The notes under the pieces are model-generated. The model made no database searches. It saw nothing but the letters and a program-made list of their open reading frames with translations, and was not told the origin of the DNA. Below, in pieces: positions 18,490 to 44,410 of a stretch of 64,000 bases of DNA. The position numbers were made by a program, and so were the translations under genes. This stretch comes from Candidatus Staskawiczbacteria bacterium (GTDB lineage Bacteria; Patescibacteriota; Minisyncoccia; Minisyncoccales; Staskawiczbacteraceae). Where the stretch lies: assembly GCA_903845295.1 (NCBI GenBank), contig CAIMWV010000035.1, forward strand, positions 924 through 64,923, given 5' to 3'. How positions within the stretch are numbered: position 1 is the first letter of the stretch; each line of letters begins with the position of its first letter.

Positions 18490-20043
18490 TTATATTTTTC
18501 CTTTCAGCCAATCTGCGAAGACATAGACTTCACCTGAAAAGTAAAACCATAAGCCTGCGGCAATAATTAATAATGGCAGAAAGAATGAGTCTGTAAAAAA
18601 GTCATTGGTTAGTCCGGTTGATACGGTCGAAGCGCCGTATACTAAGGTTTTATTCACAACAACTGTAGCACTGCTGGTTTGTGTGCCTGCTTCAGTGCTG
18701 GTTACAGTTGCATTACTGGCTATAGTAGTGGCTCCGTAGCTGAAATTTCCCGCGGACGCCACTTGTACCTGATATGCCACCACAGTTGCCTGGCCGGCAT
18801 AAACTGTGCCGATATTTACTCCGGAGGTTATATCGCCGCCGTAGTTGGAATTTGTATTTACCATCAGATTCCCTCTATAGATAAGATCTGCGGGTAAAAT
18901 ATCCCTGACCGTCACGTTATGCACATCCTGGCCGTTAGCCTGCAAGGTTATGGCAAAAGTCAAAATGTCAGACGGACTGGCGCTAACCGATGAAGACCAA
19001 TTTAAGTTTCTTGAAGTAAGATTTATCACCTGTTTAGTTATTGTAAGGGAACCATTGCCATAATAATAGCCGTTTCCGGATCCCAAGGTGGTAAAAGTCA
19101 TGTCCTGGCCATAAACAGTTCCATAATTGCCTTGCGCAACCGCCCTGAAGTGGTATGTGGTACCAGAATTCAAATTTTCAATGTTTTGCATAAATGTCCC
19201 TGAATAACCTATAAACTGTTGGGACGTTGTATTGTTATAGTTAGATGTTGTCCCCCATTGGAAATAGACATAATTTGTTGCGGATGAATTAGCGCTGGAT
19301 AATGAGCCATTCAAGGTTACCTGAAAATTAGAAACGTACGTTGCATAATTTGTCTGAACATAGCTATTATTGCCGTTATTGTTTGAATTCATATAAACTA
19401 TCATGCTGTCCGAATTTGAACTTCCATAATTGTTGGTAACAGTAAGCGTGCAGGTATAAGTTATTTGATTATTATAATTGCTTACATATGGAGCCGTATA
19501 AACCGGCTGGGCAATATTATAACTTAATAATGTGCCGCCATTGCATGACCAGGAATAATTCAACGCATATCCGTTCGGATCATACCCGGAACCTTGCAAG
19601 GTTACAGTTTGTCCGGAGGTCAAATATAAATCCGGCCCGGCATTTGCTGTCAAAATATTGCCGTTTGACTGCCCTGTGACAAAAGTCATGTCCTGGCCGT
19701 AAACTGTTCCGTAGTTGTTTTGGGATACAGCTATAAAATGATAGGTTGTGTTTGGGGCCAATCCGGATATTGTTTGGCTGGACAACCCTGTGTAACTCTG
19801 CGTTGTGCCGGAAGTTTGATAGCCGTACGAGGTGCTGGTCCCCCACTGGAAATAAACTGTTGTGCTGCCATAACTGCCAAGGTACGTCACTGAAGCGTTA
19901 AGAGTGGCTGAATTATTTTGAATGTTTGTCGCGGAATTTGTCTGTATCTGGGGTGCAAATTGGGCTGAAACTCCCTCACCAAAAGAAAAACAAAGAACGG
20001 CAGTTACTCCGACCAAAAATATTAGTTTTGCTGTTTTTTTCAT
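18490..20043 (-). CDS. Large surface protein: signal peptide, two FN3/PKD-like repeats, DUF11-like domain, C-terminal TM anchor (paralog of 42281-44410)
   Basis: Repeated TTYHF(I/R)AV(S/A)QxNYGTVYGQDMTF blocks. DUF11-like LTITKQV...PSDILTFAITLQANGQDVHNVTVRD. C-terminal GASTVSTGLTNDFFTDSFFLPLLIIAAGLW hydrophobic anchor. Confidence 0.6.
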   Translation of the reverse strand: MKKTAKLIFLVGVTAVLCFSFGEGVSAQFAPQIQTNSATNIQNNSATLNASVTYLGSYGSTTVYFQWGTSTSYGYQTSGTTQSYTGLSSQTISGLAPNTTYHFIAVSQNNYGTVYGQDMTFVTGQSNGNILTANAGPDLYLTSGQTVTLQGSGYDPNGYALNYSWSCNGGTLLSYNIAQPVYTAPYVSNYNNQITYTCTLTVTNNYGSSNSDSMIVYMNSNNNGNNSYVQTNYATYVSNFQVTLNGSLSSANSSATNYVYFQWGTTSNYNNTTSQQFIGYSGTFMQNIENLNSGTTYHFRAVAQGNYGTVYGQDMTFTTLGSGNGYYYGNGSLTITKQVINLTSRNLNWSSSVSASPSDILTFAITLQANGQDVHNVTVRDILPADLIYRGNLMVNTNSNYGGDITSGVNIGTVYAGQATVVAYQVQVASAGNFSYGATTIASNATVTSTEAGTQTSSATVVVNKTLVYGASTVSTGLTNDFFTDSFFLPLLIIAAGLWFYFSGEVYVFADWLKGKI

Positions 20044-20136
20044 AGATTTTCAGGACTATATATCATAGTATATAGCGCATAGTCCTCACCTCCACACTCT
20101 AATCTTATTTAAATTTTTGTCAACATTTTTTATTTT

Positions 20137-22143
20137 TTAGCGCTTGAGGTTTGCAAGGAAAAAATCGGGCAGATTTCCTCTTACTATAATATTCGATGCT
20201 TTGATTGTACTCGATTGCTCGTTATAAATATTTTGGCATTCAGCAATTGGTAAAGATTTAGGTGCACCCTTCGGGTCGGTCAGAGATTCGCAGAAACCAT
20301 GCGTAAAAATGCCATCATCGTCTGCCTGATATACCAAATTTTGGGTTAAAATGGCGTCTATTCCTCCGGAAACAAGCTTAAAGTGCGTTTCAACCGGAGT
20401 CTTTGTATTTAATAAATCCTGCCCCAATATGGTTTTTGGCGCAACAATTCCTAAAAGATTTGTTATTGTCGGATATATGTCCAAATGGCTGCCGGGAATA
20501 TCGCTTATCCCTTTTAACTTTGTTCCGGGAGCTAGAATAATCATCGGCACTTGGCTGTTTGCCAATGCCGGCAAAACATTGCTTTGCCCCAAAGCCTGCG
20601 ATATATTCGTAAAACTTCCGTGGTCGCCCCAGATAAGTATCAATGAATTATTATACAAGCCATCTTTTTTCAACTCGCCGATAAATTCCCCGATTGCCTT
20701 ATCTGTATAGTGTATGCTTTGTAAATACCCTTGCTGCATCCAGTCAAGCTTTGAGTCGGTTGGAATTTTTAGTGTTTGTAAATCGTCAGGTAAAATAAAC
20801 GGGGTATGAGAACTCATTGTAATCAGGGTTGCCATAAACGGCTGTCTCGCACCCTTTATTTGAGAATTAGATAAAAGGCTGTTGAAACTCTCCAATCTTG
20901 GCAGTGATTGAGAAAATAAATCTTCATCTCCCAGATCAGAAGGTCCTTTACCGACAGATCTGGTCACAACATAATCGTCTAAATCATAAGCTTTATGATA
21001 TCCTAATCCGGGATAAATATTTGACCTGTTCCAGAAAGTCGGCACGTCTCCGTGCAGAGAATAAGTTTTATATCCGTTGTTTACAAGGAGTTGGGGCAAT
21101 GCCGTGTATGTATTTTTGGCGTAATCTATAAAAACCACATCGTCGGGCAAGGGATACAATGAATCCATTGTAGAAAATTCCGCATCAGCAGTATTGCCAG
21201 GGCCGACTTGCGTATAATAATTATCAAAATACAAACCGTCTTTGGATAACTGATTTAAATTTGGAGTAATTTCCTGCCCGCCCATTGTTTGGTTGATGAC
21301 AGCGTTTTCCAGCGATTCCACCTGGATAATTATAAGATTTTTCCCTTTTTCAACGCCAAAATATTTTTTAGCGCCTATAGGCTGCACCCTGCTTTCTGCA
21401 AATGCCTTTAAAAAATTTTCATCACTGGCTGAAATTAAATTGCTTCTTAAAATAGTTTTAAAAGTGTCTTCGAGGAAAAAATTCATAATGCCCATTTTGC
21501 CCACCAGTGATTTTAAATCGTACACATCGGTATAAAGCCTGCTCGTGCTCCCCCACTCTTTTTTTTCTGTATATAAAAGATATTTATATCCGAAAAATAC
21601 TATAGCTATCATCGCCGAGGCAATGATTATTTTTTCCCATTTTGGCAAAACAAATTCTGTAGGTGGTTTTTGAGCATTTTTTTTAAAGGAAAAAAGAAAT
21701 ACAAACAAGACTATTGCAAAATTACTGAAAAACAGCAGCAATTCAGGAGTAAGTAAGATTCTTATGGTGCCCGAAACGCTATCTGCTTCACCTATATATT
21801 TTATTGCGGAGAATTGCAAAAAACTCTGCGAATACCTGTAATATAAAAATTGCGCAGTAAAAATCAAAGATACTAAAAAAGAAACTAAAAAAAGATATAT
21901 ATATTTATATCTTTTTTTGAAAAGCAAAGCCGGGCCGTAAAAAACAATCCCCAGAGCAAAAGCAACCCAAAAAAGCCGTGCAAAATACGCTTTTGAATAA
22001 ATGTTGAGCCATTCATTAAACGCGAAGTTTTGTATTGTAAATAAAACTGCTAGCAGCAGCGGTAAAGATAAAACCTTTGTATAACCAACTATTCTTCCTT
22101 TGTATTTTTCAAAAGATGATTTTATAAATTCTATATATTGCAT
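20137..22143 (-). CDS. LTA synthase family protein / sulfatase-like phosphoglycerol transferase
   Basis: N-terminal multi-TM region followed by an alkaline-phosphatase-superfamily domain (SHTPF, WGDHGS motifs). Confidence 0.8.
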   Translation of the reverse strand: MQYIEFIKSSFEKYKGRIVGYTKVLSLPLLLAVLFTIQNFAFNEWLNIYSKAYFARLFWVAFALGIVFYGPALLFKKRYKYIYLFLVSFLVSLIFTAQFLYYRYSQSFLQFSAIKYIGEADSVSGTIRILLTPELLLFFSNFAIVLFVFLFSFKKNAQKPPTEFVLPKWEKIIIASAMIAIVFFGYKYLLYTEKKEWGSTSRLYTDVYDLKSLVGKMGIMNFFLEDTFKTILRSNLISASDENFLKAFAESRVQPIGAKKYFGVEKGKNLIIIQVESLENAVINQTMGGQEITPNLNQLSKDGLYFDNYYTQVGPGNTADAEFSTMDSLYPLPDDVVFIDYAKNTYTALPQLLVNNGYKTYSLHGDVPTFWNRSNIYPGLGYHKAYDLDDYVVTRSVGKGPSDLGDEDLFSQSLPRLESFNSLLSNSQIKGARQPFMATLITMSSHTPFILPDDLQTLKIPTDSKLDWMQQGYLQSIHYTDKAIGEFIGELKKDGLYNNSLILIWGDHGSFTNISQALGQSNVLPALANSQVPMIILAPGTKLKGISDIPGSHLDIYPTITNLLGIVAPKTILGQDLLNTKTPVETHFKLVSGGIDAILTQNLVYQADDDGIFTHGFCESLTDPKGAPKSLPIAECQNIYNEQSSTIKASNIIVRGNLPDFFLANLKR

Positions 22144-22591
22144 TTTCGCCGTTTTTATAATAAGCCTGAAGAAATTCTTCTTTAATAATTTTAGCGTCCA
22201 TTTTTGCCAAATCTTCTTCGTGCTTTTTAAAAAGCTTCTGCGAAGCTTCTCTCAGGTGCATGCTTAATAATGCGGGTTTCCCTTGCTTTTTGGCTTTATT
22301 TTGCATTTTTTTTATGAGCTTCTGAGCCATTTTCCAACCTATGCCTTGCCTCTGGGCTTCCGGCATAACTGCTATATCCTCTAAATATACAGTGGAATCT
22401 TCCTTGTCAACAGCTATTAAATATGCAATACCGGGAATAATAATCGAATATTCTAAGCCGTTTCCTTTTTTAATGTCTTCCAAAAGAGCCTGTCCCTGCC
22501 GAAGTGCTTTAGGATAAATCCTTTTTTCCATTTCCAATATTTCAAGAAAATCCTTTTCCGATAAAGATTTTATTTCAAACTTTTCCGCCAT
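22109..22591 (-). CDS. GNAT-family N-acetyltransferase
   Basis: Motif A region YLEDIAVMPEAQRQGIGWKMAQKLI. Confidence 0.75.
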   Translation of the reverse strand: MAEKFEIKSLSEKDFLEILEMEKRIYPKALRQGQALLEDIKKGNGLEYSIIIPGIAYLIAVDKEDSTVYLEDIAVMPEAQRQGIGWKMAQKLIKKMQNKAKKQGKPALLSMHLREASQKLFKKHEEDLAKMDAKIIKEEFLQAYYKNGENAIYRIYKIIF

Positions 22592-22611
22592 AATTTTTTT
22601 ATCACAGATAA

Positions 22612-24820: not shown

Positions 24821-24911
24821 ATAATTAATTACCTAAATATATCAAAAAAGGCCTTTTCAGGCAACATCTGGCTGTTTTTTATATAGATTGTTAAAAATTT
24901 GTTAAAGATGC

Positions 24912-25046
24912 ATAACCCCGTTAGAAGTTTGCCCCCGCAAAATTATTATTTTGTATTCCAGGATTTTAATAGCAATCTATGGCGACAAAAGTTTAGAAAA
25001 ACTTTTGTCGCGTCGGCATTTGATTATAAACTTCTAACGGGGTATA
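24912..25046. repeat. Inverted-repeat element E2: 16-bp perfect arms ACCCCGTTAGAAGTTT / AAACTTCTAACGGGGT enclosing about 100 bp, including a perfect 13-bp inner hairpin (GCGACAAAAGTTT / AAACTTTTGTCGC at 24961-24992). It sits in the divergent guaB / pgi intergenic region.
   Basis: Perfect terminal inverted repeats. Core CCCGTTAGA shared with E1 and E3. Confidence 0.55.
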
Positions 25047-26195: not shown

Positions 26196-26206
26196 TATAA
26201 GCGACC

Positions 26207-30820: not shown

Positions 30821-30845
30821 ATTTATCTTTACTTTTGAGCAAAGC

Positions 30846-30916
30846 TGCGGGACTTGGATTCGAACCAAGATACTAGCCTTCAAAGGGCCATGTCCTACCA
30901 TTAGACGATCCCGCAG
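30846..30916 (-). tRNA. tRNA-Gln (anticodon TTG)
   Basis: Manual fold: acceptor TGCGGGA/TCCCGCA, D-arm GTCT/GGAC, anticodon stem TGGCC/GGCTA with loop CTTTGAA, T-arm CTTGG-TTCGAAT-CCAAG, discriminator G. Confidence 0.9.
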
Positions 30917-31160
30917 CTTTGCTCAAAAACCTTTTTAATGTGGCACCGCCATGCCAACTTTTGATTTGCTTTTCTCTTTGCCTAGCTTTCCCGTAATCTT
31001 TATATTCTTGAAAATAAATTATGCTCCATAGAGTGCCAAGTTTAGTCGAATATACTTCCCCGCGATTGTGTTTCAACAAACGCTTTTTCGGGTCTAACTT
31101 TGTAATCCCTACATAATGTTTTCCTTTGTCATTTTCAAGAATATAAAGATTACAATTCAT
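30873..31160 (-). CDS. GIY-YIG nuclease superfamily protein (COG2827/YhbQ-like). Start taken at MNCNLYIL. The C-terminal ~15 codons overlap tRNA-Gln on the same strand.
   Basis: GIY-YIG core LYILENDKGKHYVGITKLDPKKRLLKHN...YSTKLGTLWSIIYFQEYKDYGKARQREKQIKSW. Confidence 0.65.
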   Translation of the reverse strand: MNCNLYILENDKGKHYVGITKLDPKKRLLKHNRGEVYSTKLGTLWSIIYFQEYKDYGKARQREKQIKSWHGGATLKRFLSKAAGSSNGRTWPFEG

Positions 31161-31174
31161 CAATTTAAATTTGG

Positions 31175-31201
31175 CGGGGCAAGTTAGACGATCCCGCAAT
31201 A
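31175..31201 (-). repeat. Duplicate of the first 15 nt of tRNA-Gln (TGCGGGATCGTCTAA) lying upstream of the GIY-YIG gene
   Basis: Exact 15-nt match to the tRNA-Gln 5' end followed by divergence. It falls inside the over-extended N-terminus of the ORF-track GIY-YIG ORF. Confidence 0.45.
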
Positions 31202-31236
31202 ATAGATTCACTACTGAAAGATTCTTTTTTATAATA

Positions 31237-33042
31237 TCATTTTTTTCCAGATTTTTCAATTGTTTGGCCGCCAGATTGCAGATAAAAATTTTCTTCTGAA
31301 AAATCTAGTTGCTTGGTTGTTTTATCAATTTTTACCGTCAACCCGAGCCCGTTACGTACATTTTCATTAAAGTATTGGTCAAAAATAAAGTTTCCAAGAG
31401 AATAATAAATTCTCTTGCCGTTATAAACCTCCGGGACACCCCCCGGGCCTTCTATCACATGCGGATGGGCGCCAACAACCAAATCTGATCCCGCGTCTAT
31501 AAATTGGCGGGCCAGCTCCTCTTGTCCATCTGTAGGCGTTAAAGAGTATTCTACTCCCCAGTGGCTGAACACAACCACAATATCTGACTCAGATTTTATT
31601 TTCTTTATCTCGTTGATCGTAGCTTTTTGTTCATCGCCAATATCGTTGCCTGAAAATTCGTTATAACTTACAAATGCAATTTTAATGCCTCCTATATCTT
31701 CAACCGCGCTCTTTTCCCCGCCTGGTTCGCCAAAATAATCAACGTTGGCGCCGCTCAAATATTTTTCCGTAGAATTCAAGCCTTCTTGGCCAAAATTTAA
31801 AATATGATTATTTCCCAGATCAACTAATCTGATATTTTCCATAAAAAGGGTTCCGGCTAGGCTAGGGTCAAAGGTAAAAAAATAATTGTCTATACTGCCC
31901 GGAATTGTTCCGGAGCTAATTGATTTATTATCTGTGATGGGGCCCTCAAGGTTTGCAACGACTAAATCATTATCTGAAAGCAATGGAGATATTTTATCAA
32001 AAATAAATTCATTGCCGCCGTTATTTTTTGCATAATATCTTATTCCGCGGTCAAACATCAAATCACCAACGAATAAAATTTGCGCATAATCTTTTTTTGC
32101 ATAATAGCCGGACACATAGCTTGTCACTGAATTTTCATCTTCGCCGGATACGTCAAAAGAATTTTTATTATCAACAATGGTAAAATTATCTTGGTTCCCC
32201 GTTAAAAATCCTCTCAATGTTGCAAGGCATTGTTTGCAATCATTCGTAACTTGATTGATGTCATCTGCGTTTAAATTATCCAATGCATCTGTGCTTTTTT
32301 TGTCATTTGCTTTTGCCTCCTCTACAGACGAATCATGGGAAAAATCACTGCTGACTATTAAAATAGAGCTGTTATGCGATATTTTTTTGATTTCCCTCCC
32401 TAAATCTAAAAAATCAGCATAGGGCAAATTATTCCTTAATACTAGCGGCACAATTTTTGCATTTGGAAAAAACTTTTTAACAAATGGTATCTCTACATAA
32501 ATCCCGTGTTCAAGGCCCAAAACAGAATCTTTTGTTTCGACTCCTCCGTTATCTAACAAAGATTTAACTGAATTGCAGTCTGTCTGTAGTTGGCCGAATG
32601 GCGTAGTCCAATCAAGATAACTTGTGTAAGCAATTGTTTCCGGCTTGAAATAATTATTGTAATGGTCAGGGGAAACTAAAAAAACAGTTAAAATTTTATC
32701 GCTGCCAATCCTATTATAAAAATCGGCGATTAATTGTTTTGCCAGAAAATGATGTGAAATTATTCCGGCATCGGCATTGGCCTCCTGCGCCGGATTTTTC
32801 AATTTCGAAAAGACATCTTTATATTCCTCGGGATTATTGAAAACACTGGCTAAAAAGGTCTGCTTCTTAATTTGAAACACACTCCTTGGGTTGCCTTGAT
32901 AATTCTTAACAAAAAAAACACCAGCCGTTGTTATTAAAATAACAACGGCCAGAGTTATTAATGCTGATATTAAGGTTATTTCACCAAATCTTTGTTCCAC
33001 CATGGCATTTGCAATTTTTGCGGCGCGCTGGAATATTCCCAC
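31237..33042 (-). CDS. Fusion protein: N-terminal MEMO1/AmmeMemoRadiSam-system-protein-B-like domain plus C-terminal CapA-family (PGA_cap) metallophosphatase
   Basis: The C-terminus has CapA motifs (FVGDLMFDR, DLVVANLEGPIT, GNNHILNFG, FSHWGVEYS, VVGAHPHVIEG, YSLGNFIFDQ). The N-terminal ~280 aa resembles the MEMO/LigB fold (SHHF...SPDHY), assigned with lower confidence. Confidence 0.6.
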   Translation of the reverse strand: MGIFQRAAKIANAMVEQRFGEITLISALITLAVVILITTAGVFFVKNYQGNPRSVFQIKKQTFLASVFNNPEEYKDVFSKLKNPAQEANADAGIISHHFLAKQLIADFYNRIGSDKILTVFLVSPDHYNNYFKPETIAYTSYLDWTTPFGQLQTDCNSVKSLLDNGGVETKDSVLGLEHGIYVEIPFVKKFFPNAKIVPLVLRNNLPYADFLDLGREIKKISHNSSILIVSSDFSHDSSVEEAKANDKKSTDALDNLNADDINQVTNDCKQCLATLRGFLTGNQDNFTIVDNKNSFDVSGEDENSVTSYVSGYYAKKDYAQILFVGDLMFDRGIRYYAKNNGGNEFIFDKISPLLSDNDLVVANLEGPITDNKSISSGTIPGSIDNYFFTFDPSLAGTLFMENIRLVDLGNNHILNFGQEGLNSTEKYLSGANVDYFGEPGGEKSAVEDIGGIKIAFVSYNEFSGNDIGDEQKATINEIKKIKSESDIVVVFSHWGVEYSLTPTDGQEELARQFIDAGSDLVVGAHPHVIEGPGGVPEVYNGKRIYYSLGNFIFDQYFNENVRNGLGLTVKIDKTTKQLDFSEENFYLQSGGQTIEKSGKK

Positions 33043-35717
33043 CCTTGCCAGGTCTGGTCCGTATATCTCTTTGCCAGAGGCCCCGTGAACTCATAATATG
33101 AATAAACAAGTCCTTTGGTCAAGCGCGTGCCGTTGGCATCTTTAACTGCAACATAGATATAATTTGGAATGCCGTCCGCCTCGTAAAGTATCTGGCCCTT
33201 TTTTGCATCAGTATGTACATCAGCAATTACAGCGGACCTGGCGTTACTTTCCAGTGAAACCTGCGAGTCCGGCGCCTGCAAAATTTGGTCTAATTGGCCT
33301 GCGCTTAATCTTAGTTTTTCAAAATCGTCATCGCTTATTTTTGTATTTTGCAATTCTGAAACTGCAATTGTCCTGTAAAACTTCAAAGAATCCAAAAATG
33401 TAGTATTGCGCGATTCAAAATTGCTCGGCAATATTCCAAATTGCTTTAAACCATCGTCCGTTAAATTTACCAGCGATATCAACCGATCAAAAAATACCAC
33501 ATTCGGTTCAACATATCCTTTTGGAACAGGATTTGGCGGCGGAGTTTGGCCAGGCCCTCCGGCGCCCAGCTCAGCATAACTTTGTTTTGCATAAAGCAGA
33601 GTATCGTGTTTTAGCTCAGTCCACGAGCCCAAAAATGTCTGCAAGGTTTTTTTGTCCCAATCTTCAGATTTTACAAACATCGGGTATCCTGTTTTAGTGA
33701 TGCTGTCCGTAAATAATGATTTTATCGTATAAAGCCATGACCAGTATATATTTTGAGTCCATTGCTGCTGGGTTGTTTTATTAAAATAATCCTGCAGAGT
33801 TGCCATTCTGTTTGCTAAAACCTTATCGGAATTCGGCGCGTTATCTTTTATCCAGGCGTCTAAGAGCGCAGCCGATTCTTTGCTGCCCATCAAGGTAGAA
33901 ACCATTAAAGCGGTAGGCATACTCGGCAATTTTTGGCCTGTCGCCGGGTCAGGAGTTTCATCACCTTGCGTCAAGGTCGAAAATATGAAAGCATCTGGCG
34001 TAAATCTCTGGCCCATAAATCTGAATCCCTTTGTTGTTTTTTGCAAATCCTCTTTTGTTGTGCTGGTCACACTGTTTGAAACGATTACAGAAGACATTAT
34101 CTGCGGATTCGGGTAGGTCAGCAATTCATCCTGCAATTTATTAACGGCAGAATCACTTTCATCAGAGATTGTAAATCCTGTTTTTGTTTCTGCCTGATTA
34201 TATTCGTAAACCGTCAGGTCATCTGATTTGCCGACAAAGAATGTTGTCGGCTGGTAAATTGATTCCCATTGTTTCAGTTCATCCGTAGAAAGAAGCTGGG
34301 TGATATTTGCCGCATCTCGGGTTAATTCCGGGCTCTTCAGTAAAAAATTCATCCTGCCATAAAACATCATTGCCCTGAAATAATCTCTGAGTATCACATT
34401 TTTTGTATAGTGGCTCCGCGGGCCAAATTGGGTATAATCTTCCGACATATCGGGCTGATATTTGCCCATTAAAGGCGACGGGGCCGGTTGATTTGCATCA
34501 AAAATTAATGTGATTTCCTGCTTTGCAATATTTTTGGCGTTGTCTGAAACATTATTTGATTTTGCCAAGGAATCTGTTAATGCCAAAACAGCGGCTTTTG
34601 TGTCTGATTTTGAATCATCCACAAAATTTGCCTGTTTAAATTTATTGTAATCAGCCGTTGCATTCTCTAAAATTGATGAAGTCACCAAAAAGTATGAAGA
34701 CAAGCGTTCATAACTGTCTTTTTGATTTTGATCCGTTGTGCCTGAATAAGCGCCGGCGGATTGTTTCAATAAATTTTTGCTTAATTCGTCGAGCGTCGGA
34801 TAAAAATTGTTTTCTTCAATATATGAAAATTCTTCATCGATTAATTTATGGTAGGTATGTGTTAAAAAGTCAGTGGTGACAAAAACAGAATTTTGCGGCT
34901 GTCGCTCATAATCGGCGTATCCCCCGCCTATCGCACCGTATAAAGTTGTCCAATCGTCATTTCTTCTGGCATTTTGGCTGCTTGTATCGCTTGAATAAAA
35001 TTTATCATTATTTCTTGTGATAAAAAAATTATCTGTTGTTAAGGAATTCGTTTCTGCCGTTGAAAAATTTCCGCTGGTCTTTTGGAAATTATTAAGGTTA
35101 GTTAATTCGCTTAAAGACAACTGGTAATTTGGAATTGCCGGGGTATACTTTGTGCTTTCTAGGCTATATTTAGCGAAAGCTGGCTCTACAAAATTATTGG
35201 CAGTTGCAGCGGGACTTGTATTCTCGTTACTCTTTGTTTGCGTCGGAATGATTTTATTAAGCAGATCTGTCTGGGTCACAACCAAATATCCCGCCCCGCA
35301 CAAGAAAACAACAACAATCAAAACCAATAAAAGTTTTAAAACTAAATGAGATTTTCTTGTCCCTGGAATATTAGCTTGCGGTGATTGCTGGATTTGCGGT
35401 TGCGGCTGAGGTTGTGGTTGAGCTTGTGTTTGTTGCTGTGGTTGCTGTGGTCGCGGTTGCACCTGTGGCTGAGATTGTGTCGGCTGAGGCTGAGGTTTGG
35501 GCTGATATTGGGGCTGTTGCTGCGCTTGGGGCTGGATTTGCGGTTGCGGCTGAGGTTGTGGTTGAGGTTGGGTTAAAGATGCAAGGGCATCATTGACCTC
35601 TGCTTCCGTCCATCCGTTTTTGTATAACAAAGTACGGGTCTGATCTTCGCTTTGACCGGCCTGCCTTGCTTTTTTTATATAATCTACTAATTGTTGTTCC
35701 AACATATTTTTTTGCAC
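32976..35717 (-). CDS. Large membrane-anchored protein: cytoplasmic N-terminal domain, PQ-repeat linker, one TM helix, ~700-aa extracytoplasmic domain of unknown function (GTG start)
   Basis: (PQ)n / QPQ repeat region, hydrophobic helix LLLVLIVVVFLCGAGYLVV. No catalytic motifs recognised. Confidence 0.5.
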   Translation of the reverse strand: MQKNMLEQQLVDYIKKARQAGQSEDQTRTLLYKNGWTEAEVNDALASLTQPQPQPQPQPQIQPQAQQQPQYQPKPQPQPTQSQPQVQPRPQQPQQQTQAQPQPQPQPQIQQSPQANIPGTRKSHLVLKLLLVLIVVVFLCGAGYLVVTQTDLLNKIIPTQTKSNENTSPAATANNFVEPAFAKYSLESTKYTPAIPNYQLSLSELTNLNNFQKTSGNFSTAETNSLTTDNFFITRNNDKFYSSDTSSQNARRNDDWTTLYGAIGGGYADYERQPQNSVFVTTDFLTHTYHKLIDEEFSYIEENNFYPTLDELSKNLLKQSAGAYSGTTDQNQKDSYERLSSYFLVTSSILENATADYNKFKQANFVDDSKSDTKAAVLALTDSLAKSNNVSDNAKNIAKQEITLIFDANQPAPSPLMGKYQPDMSEDYTQFGPRSHYTKNVILRDYFRAMMFYGRMNFLLKSPELTRDAANITQLLSTDELKQWESIYQPTTFFVGKSDDLTVYEYNQAETKTGFTISDESDSAVNKLQDELLTYPNPQIMSSVIVSNSVTSTTKEDLQKTTKGFRFMGQRFTPDAFIFSTLTQGDETPDPATGQKLPSMPTALMVSTLMGSKESAALLDAWIKDNAPNSDKVLANRMATLQDYFNKTTQQQWTQNIYWSWLYTIKSLFTDSITKTGYPMFVKSEDWDKKTLQTFLGSWTELKHDTLLYAKQSYAELGAGGPGQTPPPNPVPKGYVEPNVVFFDRLISLVNLTDDGLKQFGILPSNFESRNTTFLDSLKFYRTIAVSELQNTKISDDDFEKLRLSAGQLDQILQAPDSQVSLESNARSAVIADVHTDAKKGQILYEADGIPNYIYVAVKDANGTRLTKGLVYSYYEFTGPLAKRYTDQTWQGWEYSSAPQKLQMPWWNKDLVK
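35388..35566. repeat. 33-bp direct DNA repeat (GGATTTGCGGTTGCGGCTGAGGTTGTGGTTGAG) present twice 146 bp apart within the PQ-repeat-coding region
   Basis: Exact repeat at about 35388-35420 and 35534-35566. Degenerate GGTTGNGG(C/T)TG periodicity lies between the copies. Confidence 0.7.
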
Positions 35718-37701: not shown

Positions 37702-38358
37702 ATGATTTGCTATACTGAGCGTATGAAAAATTTATTAAATGATTTTAAAGATTTCCTGGAAAAAATCGACCATTATAGGGACGAGTTGCTTTTTCTTTTT
37801 ATAAAACCATGCTGGCCTAAAAAAATCTCTCCAAACCATTTAACATATGCAAGGGTTGTCATAGGCTTATCGTTGTTTATCTTGCTGTTCTTTTTTGGCA
37901 TAGAAAATAAGCTCCTAATAATTTCTTTATTTTGTGCGGGGGCCTTAACAGATCTTTTCGACGGTTCTGTTGCAAGGGGCCTGAATAAGATAACTGAGCT
38001 TGGCACCATGCTAGATCCGATAGCTGACAGGGTTTTAATTGTTCCTATAGCGGTTTACAGCTTGTATGGAGATCAAAAATGGCTGCTTTTACTCCTGCTT
38101 TTAGCAGAAGTGGCTGGCGCGCTTGTTTCTGTATTTTATAAATCAAAAGAGGCGCGTGTAAACATAAACATTTTTGGCAAGACTAAAATGGTTTTATTGT
38201 CGATCGTGTTCGTTGCGCTTTTAATAGTTTGGCCGAACACACCGTCTGTCTTTTTTATTGATATTTTATGGATTTCTCTGATTTTTTCTCTTTTGAGCAT
38301 TTTTACAAGAATATTAGAATTAAAAAATAAAGGATATGTCAAATTTAAAAATATATAA
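37702..38358 (+). CDS. CDP-alcohol phosphatidyltransferase family protein
   Basis: Motif DLFDGSVARGLNKITELGTMLDPIADR (D-G-x2-A-R-x8-G-x3-D-x3-D). Confidence 0.8.
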   Translation: MICYTERMKNLLNDFKDFLEKIDHYRDELLFLFIKPCWPKKISPNHLTYARVVIGLSLFILLFFFGIENKLLIISLFCAGALTDLFDGSVARGLNKITELGTMLDPIADRVLIVPIAVYSLYGDQKWLLLLLLLAEVAGALVSVFYKSKEARVNINIFGKTKMVLLSIVFVALLIVWPNTPSVFFIDILWISLIFSLLSIFTRILELKNKGYVKFKNI

Positions 38359-39739
38359 TACGCTTTCCGGCAAAAAAGACTTATTCAAACCCATCAAGGG
38401 CAAGAAAGTTAACCTTTTTGTCTGCGGACCCACCGTCTATGATTATTCCCATTTGGGACACGCCAGAAATTATATTATTTTTGATTCATTCGTAAAATAT
38501 CTGAGGCACATCGGCTTTAATGTTTTTTATTTGCAGAATATAACCGATTTAGATGACAAAATTATAGCCCGCGCAAGGGAAAAGGATGTTTCGCCTAAAG
38601 ATCTGGCAGTGGCCTTTGAAAAAGAGTATTTGAAGGATATGAAGCTTCTGGGAGTAGACAGCGTTTCAAAATATGCCGAGGCTACGAGCTATATAAAAGA
38701 AATAATCAGCCAGGTGCAAAGACTCCAGGATAAAGGTTATGCCTATAAAATTGAAGGCGACGGAATCTATTACAATATTGCTAAATTTAAAAACTACGGC
38801 AAACTCGCCGGCAGGACAGCCCTTGAAGCAGAGGATGCTGTTACCAGGATAGACTACAGTAAAGACAAAAAAAACAGAGGCGATTTTTGCCTGTGGAAAT
38901 TCACTGAAGAATCAGGACTGTCTTGGCCCGCTCCTTTCGGCAAAGGGAGACCAGGCTGGCACATAGAAGATACCGCAATTACAGAAAAGTTTTTTGGGCC
39001 GCAATATGACATACACGGAGCGGCCAGAGATTTGATATTCCCCCACCATGAGGCGGAAATAGCGCAAATGGAAGCTGTCTCAGGCAAATCGCCACTGGTA
39101 AAATACTGGATGCATGTAGGATTTTTAACTGTCAGCGGCCAAAAAATGTCCAAATCCCTGGGAAATTTTATTACGATAAGCGATTTATTGAAAAGATGCC
39201 CGGCCAACTATTTAAGGTTTTTTGTTGTTAAAAATTTATGGCGCGCGCCGATCGACTATTCTGAGTCCCTGATGATAGAAGTGAAATCGGCAGTTGAGAA
39301 AATTGAAGAATTTTTAAGAAAGATAAAATCCGTAAAATCAGCCAAACCGTCAAAAGAAGTAACTTCAGAAATTAAAAAGTTAAAGGAAAACTTCTATAAA
39401 GAATTAGACGATGATTTCAACACTCCAAGGGCATTCGCCGTAATGTTTGAATTTATCAACAAGACAAATGCACATTTAGACAAGGATCTGATCTCAAAAA
39501 AACAAGCCGGCGATATTTACAAATTTTTCCGGGAGATTGATAAAATTTTCGGAATTATTAATTTCGAAAAAGTAAATAAAGCCATCCCTGCTGAAATAAA
39601 AAAACTGGTCAAAGAAAGAGAACTTCACCGAAAAAACAAGGAATGGCAAAAAGCCGACCAAACACGATTACAGATTGAAAAGCAAGGATTTACCGTAGAA
39701 GACACAAAAGACGGCCCCGCCATTAAATCTATTGCATAA
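38336..39739 (+). CDS. cysS: Cysteine--tRNA ligase
   Basis: HIGH motif (HLGHARN), KMSKS, zinc-binding Cys, class I Rossmann fold order. Confidence 0.95.
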   Translation: MSNLKIYNTLSGKKDLFKPIKGKKVNLFVCGPTVYDYSHLGHARNYIIFDSFVKYLRHIGFNVFYLQNITDLDDKIIARAREKDVSPKDLAVAFEKEYLKDMKLLGVDSVSKYAEATSYIKEIISQVQRLQDKGYAYKIEGDGIYYNIAKFKNYGKLAGRTALEAEDAVTRIDYSKDKKNRGDFCLWKFTEESGLSWPAPFGKGRPGWHIEDTAITEKFFGPQYDIHGAARDLIFPHHEAEIAQMEAVSGKSPLVKYWMHVGFLTVSGQKMSKSLGNFITISDLLKRCPANYLRFFVVKNLWRAPIDYSESLMIEVKSAVEKIEEFLRKIKSVKSAKPSKEVTSEIKKLKENFYKELDDDFNTPRAFAVMFEFINKTNAHLDKDLISKKQAGDIYKFFREIDKIFGIINFEKVNKAIPAEIKKLVKERELHRKNKEWQKADQTRLQIEKQGFTVEDTKDGPAIKSIA

Positions 39740-39784
39740 TTTACTTGCTTTTGCTATGCAAGATGTATAAGATATAGTATTATC

Positions 39785-41146
39785 ATGGCTAAAGAATTAA
39801 CGGAAAAACTTCCTCCGCAGAATAATGAAGCAGAAGAATGCCTGCTGGGGTGCTTGATGTTGGACAAAGACGCAATTGTCAAAGTAATCGATTTTATAAA
39901 AGCCGAGGATTTTTATAAAGGCATCCACCAGGATATTTACCAGGCAATGGCTGACCTTTATGAAAGGTCAAACCCAATCGACATACTTTCGGTTTCAGCC
40001 AGATTGAAAGAAAGAAATAAATTAGAAAGCATCGGAGGGTCGGCATATTTAACCTCTTTAATAAATACAGTTCCAACCGCAACCCATGTTTCCAATTACG
40101 CAAAAATTGTAAGAGAAAAAAAGATTTTAAGGGACTTGATTTCAGCTTCACAGGAAATCGGCTTGTCTGCTTTTGATGAATCAGAAGAAGTTGATGTTTT
40201 ATTGGACAAGGCCGAAAAAACTGTTTTTGGAATCGGACAAAGATCATTAACCCAGACCTTTTTGCCGATAAAAGATATACTCTCGGACACTTTTGAAAGA
40301 TTAGACGATCTTTCTAAAAATCAGGGGAAAATGCGCGGAGTTGCCACCGGCTTTACTGACTTAGATAAAATTTTAGGAGGCCTCCAGAAATCTGATTTAG
40401 TAATTTTGGCAGCCAGGCCTTCAATGGGAAAAACTTCACTGGCTTTAGATATTGCCAGAAATGTGGCAGTTCTTAAAAACGAACCAGTCGGACTTTTCAG
40501 CCTTGAAATGTCTAAAGACCAGCTGGCTGACAGACTTTTGGCCTCTACGGCAAACATTAATTTATGGAATTTAAGAAACGGCCGGCTTACGTCAGACGAT
40601 TATTCAAGACTACAACACGCAATGGGAAGCTTATCTGAGGCGCCTTTGTATATTGACGACGCAGGATCCGTAAATATTCTGCAAATAAGAGCTATGGCAC
40701 GCAGATTGCAGGCGAATAAAGGTTTGTCATTGATTGTTATAGATTATCTGCAATTAATGGAGCCAATGAATAGATTTCAGTCAGCCGTGCAACAGGTAAC
40801 AGAAAACTCCAGGGCCTTAAAAATGCTGGCTAAAGAATTAAATGTGCCGGTTCTTGTGCTTAGCCAGCTATCCCGCGCAGTTGAGGCTCGTGTTCCGCAA
40901 ATCCCAAGATTAGCTGATTTGAGAGAATCAGGAGCTATTGAACAGGACGCTGACGTTGTACTAATGATTTACAGAGAAGACAAATATAACGAAAACTCAT
41001 TGAGTAAAAACATCGCGAAAGTGTTTATTGAAAAACACAGAAACGGACCGACTGGAGGCATAGAATTATATTTCGACGAACACAGAGTAAGTTTTAGAAA
41101 CTTAGATAAAAACGAATATTCGCCGGAAACCGGCGAAGTTGGATAA
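39785..41146 (+). CDS. dnaB: Replicative DNA helicase DnaB
   Basis: N-terminal helical domain (PPQNNEAEECLLGCLM) and RecA-like domain with Walker A ARPSMGKTSLAL. Confidence 0.95.
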   Translation: MAKELTEKLPPQNNEAEECLLGCLMLDKDAIVKVIDFIKAEDFYKGIHQDIYQAMADLYERSNPIDILSVSARLKERNKLESIGGSAYLTSLINTVPTATHVSNYAKIVREKKILRDLISASQEIGLSAFDESEEVDVLLDKAEKTVFGIGQRSLTQTFLPIKDILSDTFERLDDLSKNQGKMRGVATGFTDLDKILGGLQKSDLVILAARPSMGKTSLALDIARNVAVLKNEPVGLFSLEMSKDQLADRLLASTANINLWNLRNGRLTSDDYSRLQHAMGSLSEAPLYIDDAGSVNILQIRAMARRLQANKGLSLIVIDYLQLMEPMNRFQSAVQQVTENSRALKMLAKELNVPVLVLSQLSRAVEARVPQIPRLADLRESGAIEQDADVVLMIYREDKYNENSLSKNIAKVFIEKHRNGPTGGIELYFDEHRVSFRNLDKNEYSPETGEVG

Positions 41147-41171
41147 ATATTGCTAAGCGAACAGTCATAAA

Positions 41172-41795
41172 ATGGATTCAATTGATAAACTAATAAATAT
41201 TTTTAAAAAATTTCCGACGGTTGGCTCAAGGACAGCCGGCCGTTTTGTTTACTATCTGATGAAACTGCCCAAAGAAAGAATAGACGAACTTACCAGCGCG
41301 ATTATTGAATTAAAAAACAAAATAAAACTATGCCAACTTTGTTTTAATCCATTTGAGCCCTTCGACACGGCTCAGGGTAAAGGTAACGGCCTGCTATGCC
41401 CGATTTGCCAGAATCCATCAAGAAATAAAAATTTGCTTTGCATAGTTGAAAAAGAAACCGACTTGCTGTCAATTGAAAGCACTAAAAAATATAACGGGCT
41501 GTATTTTATTCTGGGCGGAACAGTGGCAACGATGAGAAAGGAAGATATGAGCCAATTAAGGATTGAAGAATTAAAAAAAAGAATCAGGGGTAATAATTTT
41601 TCAGAAATAATAGTTGCCCTAAACCCAACGCCGGAAGGAAGAACGACATCTGTTTTAGTCGAATCCACAATAAAAGAAGTAAACCCTTCGCCTGCCTTTA
41701 AGATAACTCATTTGGCAAAAGGAATTCCTGTCGGAGGTGAACTCGAATACGCTGACGAAGAGACTCTTGAATCCGCCCTCGAAGGAAGAAAATAA
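41172..41795 (+). CDS. recR: Recombination protein RecR
   Basis: HhH motif, C4 zinc finger CQLC...CPIC, Toprim domain. Confidence 0.9.
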   Translation: MDSIDKLINIFKKFPTVGSRTAGRFVYYLMKLPKERIDELTSAIIELKNKIKLCQLCFNPFEPFDTAQGKGNGLLCPICQNPSRNKNLLCIVEKETDLLSIESTKKYNGLYFILGGTVATMRKEDMSQLRIEELKKRIRGNNFSEIIVALNPTPEGRTTSVLVESTIKEVNPSPAFKITHLAKGIPVGGELEYADEETLESALEGRK

Positions 41796-41832
41796 AAAAT
41801 CACGTTTTTTACCGTATTTTTTTATTTCTTAA

Positions 41833-41845
41833 TTTGTCGCACAAT
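41833..41845. repeat. Copy e of the 13-bp palindromic motif (TTTGTCGCACAAT)
   Basis: Convergent intergenic region between recR (+) and the metallopeptidase gene (-), 11 bp after the latter's stop. Confidence 0.7.
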
Positions 41846-41850
41846 AGAAA

Positions 41851-42237
41851 TTACTTTCTTTTCTTCTTTTCTGCTTGGCGGACCCTATGCTCGTCCATGC
41901 CGAAGTGATGGGCTATTTCATGCCAGACCGTGTCTTTAACGGCTTTTTTTATATCATCTCTGCTGGAAAAAACTTTCTCAATCGGATTTTTAAAGATTGT
42001 TATTTTATCAGGCAAAACCTGGCCATACTGTTCCCTTTTTGTTTGCGGAACTCCTTCATATAATCCAAAAAGTAACGCTCCGCGGAGTTTCAATTTTTCT
42101 GTTTGGAAAGGAGTTGGATCATCTTCCACAACTATTTCCACGTTCTTTAGTTTCTCCAGGAATTTTTCATCAATAGCATCTATCCCCTCTTTTACTAATT
42201 GTTCGAATTCTTCGTGTATCATGAATTTACTATACAA
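41851..42237 (-). CDS. Zincin-like metallopeptidase family protein (HExxH; DUF1025-like)
   Basis: 128 aa with WHEIAHHFG motif near the C-terminus. Confidence 0.55.
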   Translation of the reverse strand: MYSKFMIHEEFEQLVKEGIDAIDEKFLEKLKNVEIVVEDDPTPFQTEKLKLRGALLFGLYEGVPQTKREQYGQVLPDKITIFKNPIEKVFSSRDDIKKAVKDTVWHEIAHHFGMDEHRVRQAEKKKRK

Positions 42238-42280
42238 GCAAAAAGGCGTTTTAACAACGCCCTTTTGCTTTTTATTTCAT

Positions 42281-44410
42281 CTAGTTTCCTAACTTTTGTA
42301 TTTGGGCTATTCTGGCCGAAAGCTCTTTCTCTGCTTTATAACCTCTGCGAATTTTTTTCTTATTGTCCAGCCATTTTTCAATTCCGTAAAACATTCCGGA
42401 TCTCCACATCCAAAGGCCGATTAAAGTTATCAGCAATGGCAAGAAGAATGAATCCACCCAGAAGTTATTGGTTAAACCGGTTGAAACTGTGCTGGCTCCG
42501 AGTACCGCTCCGAGTACCGTTGATCTTGTGACAAAAACTGTTGCGCTGGCTGTAGGAGTATATCCATATGTAGAACTTGTCACGGAAACATTATTATTTA
42601 CGGTAGTGGTTCCGTATGAAAAGTTTTGAGCTGAAGCTACCTGCGCCTGATATGTTATTGTCACTGTCTGGCCGGCATATATTGTATTCAAGCTTATGCC
42701 TGATGTGATGCTTCCTGAATAATTGTAATTATTGTTATTGCAATTGCTGTTATTGCCCGTGCAAGCGACAATCAGCTGATTATTGTAGATAAGGTCTGAC
42801 GGAAGCGTATCCCTGACGAACACATTTTGTACGTCCTGGTTTCCGGTTGCCCGCAAAGTTATCATAAACATCAGCATATCTGAAGGACTGGCGTAGGTTG
42901 AAGTTGAAAATCCTGAACCGGTAGTAAGATTTTTGACTGTTTTAGCCACAGTCAAAGGGTCTGTGATATTACTATTCTGGCACGCATTGTTGTAGCATCC
43001 GTTTGCACAGTATTGGATAAGATTCTGTTGGTTTCCGCATGAATCATACCAGTAGAGACTGTTGCCTGAACACCTCTGTTGGTAGTTTGAAGTACAGTTG
43101 TTGTTTATACAAGCGCCGTTTGAGCATCCGTTTGCACAGTACTGGATTAGATTACCTTGGTTTCCGCATGAGTCATACCAATAAAGGCTATTGCCTGAAC
43201 ATCTCTGTTGGGCATTCGGGGTGCAGTTGTTATTTAAACAAGCGCCGTTTGAACATCCGTTTGCACAGTATTGGATAAAGTTTCCCTGATTGCCGCATGA
43301 GTCATACCAATAAAGGTTGCTACCGAAGCATCTTTGCTGGTAGTTTGGAGTGCAATTATTTGTACAGCTGCCATTAGTACATACCTGATTTCCGGTACAG
43401 GTTGTTTGCAATTGAGATGTTGTTGAGTTTGAACAAAAACTAGATACTGTTCCGGGATAATGACAGGTATAATTAATATAATTCTGATAAACACTGTTTC
43501 CCTGGCAAAATAACCCGCCTACAAGTCCATTGGTTCCGCACTGAGAATCAGAGCTGCATATAATATTACCATTGTTTACGCAAGCGCCGTTTTGGCAAGT
43601 TTGGTTTCCGTTACAGGTTGTTTGCAATTGAGATGTCGTTGAATTTGAACAAAAGCTGGATACTGTTCCGGGATTATTACAGGTATAAGTGATATAATTT
43701 TGATAAACACTGTTTCCCTGGCAAAATAATCCGCCTACAACTCCGTTGGTTCCGCATTGAGAACTGGAACTGCATACAATATTGCCTCCTCCATTGACCG
43801 TAACTGATCTTGTGCCTGTTACGGCTTGTCCGGCAGATGATACTAAAACCGAGGCGGTATAGTTTCCTGCGCTCTGGTATGAAGTCTGGCAGGTTGAAGA
43901 ACCTGTATCAGGACAGCCTGACCAAGTGTAGGTGTAAAAACCTGAACCGCCGGTCGGAGAAGCACTGAATGTCACTGTCTGGCCGACATTAGCCGGGTTG
44001 GGAGAAACGCTTACAGTGACTCCTAAAGGGTTAGCTTGCTGTCCGTTGACTGTGACTAATCTTGTGCCTGTTACGGCTTGTCCGGCAGATGATACTAAAA
44101 CCGAAGCGGTATAGTTTCCTGCGCTCTGGTATGAAGTCTGGCAGGTTGAAGAACCTGTATCAGGACAGCCTGACCAAGTGTAGGTATATGAACCAGAACC
44201 TCCGCTTGGAGAGGCAGTGAATGTCACTGTCTGGCCGACATTGGCAGGGTTAGGAGAGACAGAAACTGTGACCCCTAGACTATCTGCTTTTACCGCTAAT
44301 GGCAAGGCTGCAGAGATTATTAAAACGCTTAAAATAAGGACAGTTGTAAAACCTCCTTTTAAAATTTTGTTTTTCATGATGCTTTTTGTCATATTATTTA
44401 AAACTAACAA
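42281..44410 (-). CDS. Large repetitive surface protein: signal peptide, 2 PKD-like repeats, 2+3 Cys-rich repeats, DUF11-like domain, C-terminal TM anchor with cytoplasmic basic tail (paralog of 18490-20043)
   Basis: Repeats GVTVSVSPNPANVGQTVTF(T/S)ASP(S/T)GGSG(S/F)YTYTWSGCPDTGSSTCQTSYQSAGNYTASVLVSSAGQAVTGTR x2 and NNCT(P/S)N(Y/A)QQRC(F/S)G(S/N)(N/S)LYWYDSCGNQ(G/Q)N(F/L)IQYCANGC x3. C-terminal GASTVSTGLTNNFWVDSFFLPLLITLIGLW. Confidence 0.6.
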   Translation of the reverse strand: MLVLNNMTKSIMKNKILKGGFTTVLILSVLIISAALPLAVKADSLGVTVSVSPNPANVGQTVTFTASPSGGSGSYTYTWSGCPDTGSSTCQTSYQSAGNYTASVLVSSAGQAVTGTRLVTVNGQQANPLGVTVSVSPNPANVGQTVTFSASPTGGSGFYTYTWSGCPDTGSSTCQTSYQSAGNYTASVLVSSAGQAVTGTRSVTVNGGGNIVCSSSSQCGTNGVVGGLFCQGNSVYQNYITYTCNNPGTVSSFCSNSTTSQLQTTCNGNQTCQNGACVNNGNIICSSDSQCGTNGLVGGLFCQGNSVYQNYINYTCHYPGTVSSFCSNSTTSQLQTTCTGNQVCTNGSCTNNCTPNYQQRCFGSNLYWYDSCGNQGNFIQYCANGCSNGACLNNNCTPNAQQRCSGNSLYWYDSCGNQGNLIQYCANGCSNGACINNNCTSNYQQRCSGNSLYWYDSCGNQQNLIQYCANGCYNNACQNSNITDPLTVAKTVKNLTTGSGFSTSTYASPSDMLMFMITLRATGNQDVQNVFVRDTLPSDLIYNNQLIVACTGNNSNCNNNNYNYSGSITSGISLNTIYAGQTVTITYQAQVASAQNFSYGTTTVNNNVSVTSSTYGYTPTASATVFVTRSTVLGAVLGASTVSTGLTNNFWVDSFFLPLLITLIGLWMWRSGMFYGIEKWLDNKKKIRRGYKAEKELSARIAQIQKLGN
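42900..43800. repeat. Tandem, near-identical coding repeats (about 240-bp PKD-like units and about 130-bp Cys-rich units) within the surface protein gene
   Basis: Visible reiteration of GCATCCGTTTGCACAGTA(C/T)TGGAT and TGTTTGCAATTGAGATGT blocks. Confidence 0.6.

Follow-up and report, generated by a model that had tools for sequence, protein, structure and literature searches.

The closest described relatives of the element discussed here are the LPXTG signals read by sortases, which are C-terminal and tripartite, comprised of a short motif ending in Thr-Gly (T-G), a hydrophobic segment and basic residues. Non-canonical sortase motifs are also known, namely (S/P)PXTG and NVQTG in substrates of SrtB from Clostridioides difficile and LAXTG for the class E enzymes; these sortases tolerate residues other than Pro, including Val, at position 2 and keep the T-G, and their signals are not known to have a conserved extension after the T-G or a conserved cytoplasmic helix. 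The class GN or 'marine' sortase (TIGR03784) forms a dedicated pair with an adjacent target, and the PEP-CTERM/exosortase and PGF-CTERM/archaeosortase systems are lineage-specific, marking a wide range of surface proteins with a short motif at the outer edge of a C-terminal transmembrane (TM) helix that has basic residues behind it. The element compared with them here is a C-terminal tail carried by two predicted secreted multi-domain proteins of Candidatus Staskawiczbacteria, a lineage of the Parcubacteria group. These are encoded by minus-strand open reading frames (ORFs) at 18490-20043 (517 aa, here type A) and 42281-44410 (709 aa, type B) of a 64,000-nucleotide stretch of contig CAIMWV010000035.1, referred to as the window. 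The tail is probably this lineage's own variant of the cell-wall sorting signal read by sortases, cleaved between its T and G.

In layout the tail follows the LPXTG signal: it is tripartite in the same way, it ends proteins that begin with a signal peptide, it lies directly behind an isopeptide-type stalk domain, and in relatives a sortase bearing the usual His/Cys/Arg residues adjoins the substrate gene, with genes for peptidoglycan cross-bridge formation (FemAB) nearby. Unlike LPXTG signals, however, it lacks the Leu-Pro, carries 13 further near-invariant residues after the T-G (L-T-N-N-x3-D-S-F-F-L-P) and is conserved in sequence through its TM and cytoplasmic helices; the sortase, moreover, scores under the class C-F and GN cutoffs, and the host belongs to a Patescibacteria lineage whose envelope is uncharacterised. 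As in the class GN pair, the sortase gene stands immediately beside one cognate substrate gene across genomes, but the tail also ends the products of unlinked genes of the same genome (type A and further paralogues), so that the sortase does not appear to be single-target, and it scores only 20 bits against TIGR03784. The tail shares its boundary motif, its basic end and its lineage-specific spread over many surface proteins with the PEP-CTERM and PGF-CTERM systems, but differs from them in its invariant T-G, 8 residues upstream of the boundary motif, and in being hit by no NCBIfam sorting model.

Anatomy and distribution of the tail

Across 271 unique tails the consensus reads G(0.82)-A(0.85)-[TS]-x-[VI]-S(0.77)/P(0.10)-T(0.99)-G(1.00)-L(0.89)-T(0.98)-N(0.96)-N(0.90)-x3-D(0.97)-S(0.98)-F(0.99)-F-L-P(0.99), the frequencies in the DSFFLP block being somewhat inflated because the selection of tails required a DSFFLP-like block. 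The hydrophobic run that comes next has W(0.91) at +14 and S-G at +18/+19 (77-85%), and basic residues come after it. Conservation is far higher in this linker motif than in the adjoining folded domain. Homologues end in the same two forms as the window proteins, the short form closing with ..SGxxYxFADWLKxKI and the long form running on into a basic amphipathic ..GIEKWLDxKKKxxxxYKAEKELxxRIAxIQK; a few members have nothing but K/R residues behind the TM helix and end soon after it, as classic sorting signals do. The type A protein has the short form and ends ...YGASTVSTGLTNDFFTDSFFLPLLIIAAGLWFYFSGEVYVFADWLKGKI, its tail being GASTVSTGLTNDFFTDSFFLPLLIIAAGLWFYFSGEVYVFADWLKGKI and its hydrophobic segment FFLPLLIIAAGLWFYF, followed by ..KGK. 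The type B protein has the long form and ends ...LGASTVSTGLTNNFWVDSFFLPLLITLIGLWMWRSGMFYGIEKWLDNKKKIRRGYKAEKELSARIAQIQKLGN, with the tail GASTVSTGLTNNFWVDSFFLPLLITLIGLWMWRSGMFYGIEKWLDNKKKIRRGYKAEKELSARIAQIQKLGN and the hydrophobic segment FFLPLLITLIGLWMW, followed by R..KKKIRR. A tail peptide spanning the T-G and the LTNN/DSFF blocks reads GASTVSTGLTNNFWVDSFF.

As modelled by AlphaFold2 (AF2; mean predicted local distance difference test score, pLDDT, 88.6), the C-terminal 231 residues of the 709-aa protein form a confident β-sandwich, an extended linker of low confidence (pLDDT 51-69) that contains STGLTNNFWVDSFF, a TM helix and a long cytoplasmic helix. The placement of the T-G in this linker, between sandwich and membrane, supports in the model the accessibility of the putative cleavage site. 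The extra basic cytoplasmic tail that the original prediction had ascribed to the longer protein is modelled by AF2 as a helix, which is conserved across clusters and confined to the long form.

The same prediction had proposed a search for other proteins ending with the tail, and such proteins are numerous. When 1.84 billion cluster representatives were scored with a 44-column profile of the tail core, 234 of them matched at E <= 1e-3, on many architectures, and 144 at E <= 1e-10; this exhaustive search replaced a word-indexed protein search with the tail-only profile, which had returned 4 short fragments only. In all 150 listed matches the tail is C-terminal (within ~80 residues of the end) in proteins of 43-2208 aa with varied N-terminal domains, and nearly all carriers are Candidatus Staskawiczbacteria or related Patescibacteria. 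A search with the adjoining domain plus tail gave 108 metagenomic homologues, the few named ones being Candidatus Staskawiczbacteria, and species-representative genomes hold the motif at 46 loci, nearly all in Staskawiczbacteria or in metagenome-assembled genomes labelled generically as Patescibacteria, several with more than one copy. The window's own genome is absent from these species-representative genomes, the best nucleotide identity being ~74-82%.

The passengers in front of the tail are diverse. A Pfam scan of 79 representatives found DUF11 (CLIPPER) in 43 and PKD-type domains in many, with fn3, Laminin_G_3, cupredoxin, DUF4114, SprB, CBM35 and F5/8-type C domains among the others. A clade-specific hidden Markov model (HMM) places a CLIPPER-like domain directly before the tail in 111/124 representatives, and in the remaining 13 the tail is attached straight to FN3-/PKD-like domains. 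Such varied passengers and non-CLIPPER fusions mark the tail, in most cases joined to a single CLIPPER domain, as by its sequence distribution a portable module placed behind whatever precedes it.

No Pfam-A or NCBIfam model describes the tail, even at E <= 10, and LPXTG-anchor, PEP-CTERM, PGF-CTERM and GlyGly-CTERM models give no match, in keeping with the earlier statement that it fits no named sorting class. Matches to an Ecr small-membrane-protein model (NF033861, below cutoff) and to PylS_Nterm were dismissed as compositional, arising from the TM or basic helix. A literature search on the motif strings, on sortases in Patescibacteria or the candidate phyla radiation (CPR) and on Staskawiczbacteria found no description of the signal. 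As judged from these searches, the tail is an undescribed, lineage-wide C-terminal cassette that is both widespread and unnamed.

A sortase clade beside the tail genes

A co-distributed processing enzyme had been suggested as something to look for, and a sortase does lie directly upstream of the orthologues of the 709-aa gene in related genomes. There the gene order is CAP-domain protein, sortase, long-tail gene and, in some, Zincin_1, with RecR, DnaB and CysS convergent; the type B gene of the window is assigned as an orthologue because its CysS/DnaB/RecR/Zincin_1 flank is syntenic. By tblastn, 26 of the first 54 loci fetched contain the sortase, which is upstream and on the same strand in 25 and separated by a gap of <=160 nt in 15. 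Where RecR-flanked type B orthologues have at least 1 kb of upstream sequence, the sortase is found in 20/20, the window being the only exception; the other type B loci without a sortase at that position are cut by contig ends. The pairing holds equally from the sortase side. Among 80 metagenome loci, 42 extend at least 1.5 kb downstream of the sortase, and 28 of these have a tail-bearing frame there, opening <=200 nt from the end of the sortase in 26/28. The other 38/80 are short-read contigs that run out less than 1.5 kb past the sortase, probably since assemblies break in the repetitive gene that comes next; repeat-rich long-tail genes are thus systematically under-assembled. In one long-read contig (L003:4791-10864) the long-tail gene is split over several frames, and the real gene probably encodes ~2000 aa of Cys-rich and PKD repeats. 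The tail motif is kept even as the sortase diverges to 39% identity. The outcome named beforehand as refuting the original prediction, a tail limited to the two proteins and no candidate enzyme co-occurring, did not arise.

The sortases score above the cutoff for PF04203 and TIGR01076 (49-53 bits vs 39.35), and their iLGHS, LxSCWPPG and qRI motifs, which supply the His/Cys/Arg residues, are invariant in 25 aligned sequences, so that on sequence grounds the enzyme of the relatives looks active. It fits none of the named classes C-F and GN, the best scores being 54-61 bits vs 165 for class D and 54-59 vs 160 for class C, and classes A and B are not among its NCBIfam matches. Between its TM helix and catalytic domain lies an invariant juxtamembrane motif, NWxxVSWxFNY..DFFNPY (in the sortase genes of loci L003-L049, e.g. 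L004:9034-9759), a candidate docking site for the LTNN/DSFFLP blocks of the substrate. A CAP/YkwD-like protein is always encoded upstream of the sortase (L003:2931-3917, L004:8043-9002 and 19 other loci); it has one N-terminal and two C-terminal hydrophobic segments and a conserved end, IPHQI(I/V)I. In at least 17 loci, genes for a Mur ligase, DegT, FemAB and FtsQ precede the CAP-sortase pair.

Outside the tail proteins, no canonical LPXTG-type signal was found in ~1500 ORFs from the 54 loci and the window, which at ~10-20 kb per genome is weak evidence. The gene at L093:6282-9203, which comes after a sortase gene of the clade, encodes a 974-aa protein whose tail, ...VAGASTDSGFWNFLKKWYMWIISGLVLILLFIVVFKRLSSEV, is divergent: S-G stands in place of T-G, and neither the LTNN nor the DSFFLP block is present.

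The CLIPPER domain adjoining the tail

The domain in front of the tail is the CLIPPER domain (DUF11, PF01345), described as a CnaA-like isopeptide stalk domain of fibrillar adhesins (10.1101/2025.04.25.650565). It is the membrane-proximal domain of both window proteins and shares with the described stalks the CnaA-like fold and conserved Lys/Asp/Asn positions, but forms the single-copy base of the tail module, rather than a tandem stalk, and its isopeptide bond is a candidate. The residues concerned are K12/D56/N128 of the modelled segment (K490/D534/N606 of the 709-aa ORF), which are conserved in 59/75, 72/75 and 60/75 sequences, respectively. Most of the 709-aa domain is modelled at pLDDT >90. 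The best Foldseek matches of the sandwich are PilB/SSA1632/SSA1633 of Streptococcus sanguinis (E about 5e-7), EbpB, BcpA, Cna and ACE, that is, sortase-assembled pilins and MSCRAMM adhesins that are themselves sortase substrates; 9IFR, a solved CLIPPER domain, is a further match. By sequence, the C-terminal 231 aa retrieved nothing from the PDB, leaving fold comparison alone informative. A pilin-like role was considered, but neither window protein contains, on reading, a YPK-type pilin motif, and therefore polymerisation is not proposed. Of the DUF11-like domain assigned to both proteins in the original prediction, the one in the 709-aa protein passes the Pfam threshold (27.8 vs 24.6 bits; TIGR04226 gives 29.9 against a cutoff of 30), whereas the 517-aa protein has no direct hit and is assigned by homology.

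Proposed mechanism and alternatives

From the invariant T-G, the predicted topology and the sortase pairing, we infer a pathway of the sortase kind. Sec would export the protein via its N-terminal signal peptide, and the TM helix together with the basic cytoplasmic segment would keep it in the membrane, leaving the linker G-A-[ST]-x-[VI]-S-T-G-L-T-N-N-x3-D-S-F-F-L-P on the outer face. A membrane-anchored sortase of the unclassified clade would then cut between the invariant T and G and transfer the protein to an amine of a peptidoglycan precursor. The LTNN and DSFFLP blocks, the Trp of the TM helix, the S-G that follows this helix and, in the long form, the cytoplasmic helix may serve as additional recognition or retention determinants, and one candidate partner for these extra conserved blocks is the NWxxVSWxFNY motif of the sortase. 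The original prediction had proposed a dedicated signal analogous to LPXTG, PEP-CTERM or PGF-CTERM. The evidence agrees with a dedicated signal, but points to a variant within the sortase/LPXTG class and not to a separate system, because of the invariant T-G, the tripartite layout and the neighbouring sortase.

Several observations weigh against this reading. The pentapeptide is x-[VI]-[SP]-T-G, so that positions 1-2 are not L-P, and the conservation of the 13 residues after the T-G, together with that of the TM helix and the 35-residue cytoplasmic helix, exceeds what is seen in known sorting signals and, as a sequence pattern, would fit a retained functional anchor better than a discarded peptide. 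Tail genes without a sortase within the 4-10 kb fetched occur at L006-L008, L015, L017, L021 and all 12 type A loci, and clade sortases without an adjoining tail gene at L057 and L062, where unrelated DNA follows, and at L102-L104, where the order is PBP2 then sortase. The sortase comes last in a cell-wall cluster, so that a common envelope theme could account for some of the linkage. Within the window itself no sortase was detected by tblastn or by the clade HMM in all six frames (best E 0.24), and both sites at which relatives keep it, upstream of the type B gene and after PBP2, are empty.

The absence from the window is shared by the whole surrounding block, as none of the seven genes from the Mur ligase to the sortase is present there (0/7). 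The block includes cell-division and wall genes and would be essential; the window genome's sortase presumably lies elsewhere with it. Contigs carrying the 517-aa protein and window-edge genes end a few genes beyond the window and list no sortase, and the 709-aa product with a guessed Met start matched no record. The type A genes were never beside a sortase in the flanks fetched, which is the usual pattern for extra substrates of one sortase.

The most serious rival, which we consider unlikely but well short of negligible, is an uncleaved membrane-anchor module in which the TM and cytoplasmic helices stay attached and hold the adhesin, the TGLTNN and DSFFLP blocks dock to a partner, for example the CAP membrane protein, the wall or a cytoplasmic factor, and the neighbouring sortase acts on something else or only sometimes. 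Conservation past the T-G, which suggests either extra recognition determinants or a membrane part with a function of its own, keeps it alive: the TM helix and the cytoplasmic helix are conserved in sequence and confidently modelled, the two cytoplasmic subtypes are stable and each is tied to its own orthologous locus, and no sortase adjoins the tail genes of the window or of several other loci. Mere anchoring, however, gives no reason for an invariant T-G in a flexible linker that stands ~10 residues off the membrane; some members close with just a short basic end, and the tight co-directional pairing of sortase and substrate, seen from both directions, is hard to account for on this view. 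The earlier contention that the tail is more than a simple TM anchor thus has the T-G invariance and the sortase linkage in its favour, but the conservation of the TM and the ~35-residue cytoplasmic helix leaves it unsettled. Slightly less probable again is a two-part sorting domain that combines a sortase-type T-G site with a second, sequence-specific membrane element (DSFFLP, TM and cytoplasmic helix) that persists after cleavage or is read by a second partner; the persisting membrane peptide would, for instance, report surface-protein processing, and the partner would be, for instance, the co-conserved CAP membrane protein.

Two further explanations fare much worse. That the tail is a signal for another enzyme, of exosortase/archaeosortase, rhombosortase or CPBP type, reading DSFFLP at the membrane boundary, is improbable. 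The block is as conserved as the T-G and holds a PEP-/PGF-CTERM-like position at the TM entry, and no named model matches the tail; yet the recurrent neighbours found by targeted search are only the sortase, the CAP protein and cell-wall genes, and no exosortase, archaeosortase, rhomboid or CPBP gene appears in the precomputed Pfam tables of four neighbourhoods, a check that was neither systematic nor genome-wide and left most loci unscanned. Least credible of all is plain paralogy, in which a CLIPPER-plus-TM gene was duplicated and the tail serves only for anchoring. Tail and CLIPPER domain do mostly travel together, and the window genes are 54% identical over the unit, but the fusions without CLIPPER, the far greater conservation of the linker than of the folded domain beside it, and the linkage to a sortase from both directions all speak for the sortase signal instead.

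The two genes and their surroundings

BLASTP aligns the 517-aa and 709-aa proteins with 54% identity over 200 aa (E = 2e-50), restricted to the C-terminal domain and tail; the rest is unrelated. The common unit is thus a DUF11/CLIPPER β-sandwich plus the tail GASTVSTGLTN(D/N)F(F/W)xDSFFLPLLI..GLW, and a six-frame motif scan found no third copy of the tail in the window. The original prediction was accurate as to the two ORFs, their common C-terminus and their differing repeat content (Table 1), the 709-aa protein having two PKD and two kinds of Cys-rich repeats and the 517-aa protein FN3-like and PKD domains; at 517 and 709 aa, on the other hand, the proteins do not merit the term 'giant'. Both leaders, judged by eye from the sequence, are of a basic-hydrophobic-AxA-like kind. 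The TTG start listed for the type B gene at 44410 is probably too far upstream, and Met12 (44377) is favoured because the signal-peptide-like N-terminus begins there.

Table 1. Features of the two tail-bearing genes and their flanks in the window (aa, amino acids; residue numbers refer to the ORFs as listed)
Feature	Position	Strand	Description or basis
Type A surface protein gene, 517 aa	18490..20043	-	Signal peptide, FN3-like, PKD, FN3-like, CLIPPER-like domain, tail
CLIPPER/DUF11-like β-sandwich of 517-aa protein, ~residues 333-463	18655..19047	-	54% identical to 709-aa DUF11 region; homologues carry PF01345
Type A tail, residues 470-517	18493..18636	-	GASTVSTG-LTNDFFT-DSFFLP-TM-SGEVYVFADWLKGKI
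S475-T476-G477, proposed sortase site, putative cut between T and G	18613..18621	-	T 99%, G 100% in 271 unique tails
DSFFLP block and hydrophobic TM segment, residues 485-502	18538..18591	-	Motif scan and tail conservation
Type B surface protein gene, 709 aa as listed	42281..44410	-	Signal peptide, 2 PKD, 2+3 Cys-rich repeats, CLIPPER domain, tail
Two PKD repeats, residues 45-123 and 129-207	43790..44278	-	Pfam
Cys-rich repeats, 2 x ~65 aa (residues 213-349) and 3 x ~39 aa (residues 353-477)	42980..43774	-	Repeats also in relatives
CLIPPER/DUF11 CnaA-like β-sandwich, residues 486-629	42524..42955	-	DUF11 27.8 bits vs 24.6 cutoff; AF2; Foldseek
Type B tail, residues 638-709	42284..42499	-	Motif scan and tail alignment
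S643-T644-G645, proposed sortase site in flexible linker	42476..42484	-	Linker pLDDT 51-69; T-G invariance
DSFFLP block and predicted TM helix, residues 653-671	42398..42454	-	AF2 helix 178-193 of 231-aa model
Basic amphipathic cytoplasmic helix (predicted), residues 673-708, long form only	42287..42394	-	AF2 helix 195-230, pLDDT ~90+; conserved across clusters
CysS, DnaB, RecR (+), Zincin_1 (-)	38336..42237	mixed	Syntenic flank; context only, outside the system
Upstream flank rplU, RmuC	44411..46008	-	Position where relatives keep CAP-sortase; synteny break

The type A orthologues adjoin UvrD/AddA and LtaS genes, as in the window. An LtaS-type sulfatase/phosphoglycerol transferase gene (20137-22143, -) lies directly upstream of the type A gene and is adjacent also in L040, L050 and L052, which may be an envelope-related pairing. 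The ~22 kb separating the two tail genes, like the remainder of the window, are taken up by ordinary and unrelated housekeeping genes of a small genome with ~39% GC. Among them, a MraZ-RsmH-FtsL-like-PBP2 division and cell-wall cluster (52813-56432, -) ends after PBP2, the gene that the sortase follows in L102-L104. Between mraZ and a ClpB-like gene, a 2-isopropylmalate-synthase (LeuA)-like gene with HMGL-like, IPMS_D2 and LeuA_dimer domains (56698-58362, -) lies in a stretch of ~47% GC against a background of ~38% and may have been acquired horizontally. A GIY-YIG nuclease ORF (30873-31259, -) runs with its 3' end ~43 nt into tRNA-Gln (30844-30915, -); the end of the ORF may be miscalled, or a homing-endonuclease-like gene may abut the tRNA. 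At 31237-35717 (-), a CapA/PGA_cap-like gene overlaps by 67 nt the gene of a 913-aa DUF3160-like protein with a long low-complexity (PQ)n N-terminus, a pair also present in the relative L001.

Significance

To our knowledge, envelope building and adhesin display in CPR bacteria are largely unknown. A literature search found no description of the substrates or signals of CPR sortases, although a sortase family is reported from over half of the CPR genomes (Meheust et al., PMC6744442). What looks new here, accordingly, is the unnamed tail signal and its link to a sortase, the sortase class itself being already known. The feature that stands out as odd for the field is that the part of the signal beyond the proposed cleavage site is conserved. 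Linking the tail to a sortase clade and to a FemAB/Mur/FtsQ block allows the predicted wall-anchored proteome of the lineage to be listed from sequence alone, and provides an enzyme and a peptide that could be tested together in vitro with no need to culture the organism, with x-V-S-T-G-L-T-N-N as a possible new specificity for sortase-based protein ligation. Should the tail prove to be a two-part sorting domain, it would represent a Patescibacteria-specific anchoring pathway and, through a single HMM, would offer a handle on the surface proteome of these episymbiont-like bacteria.

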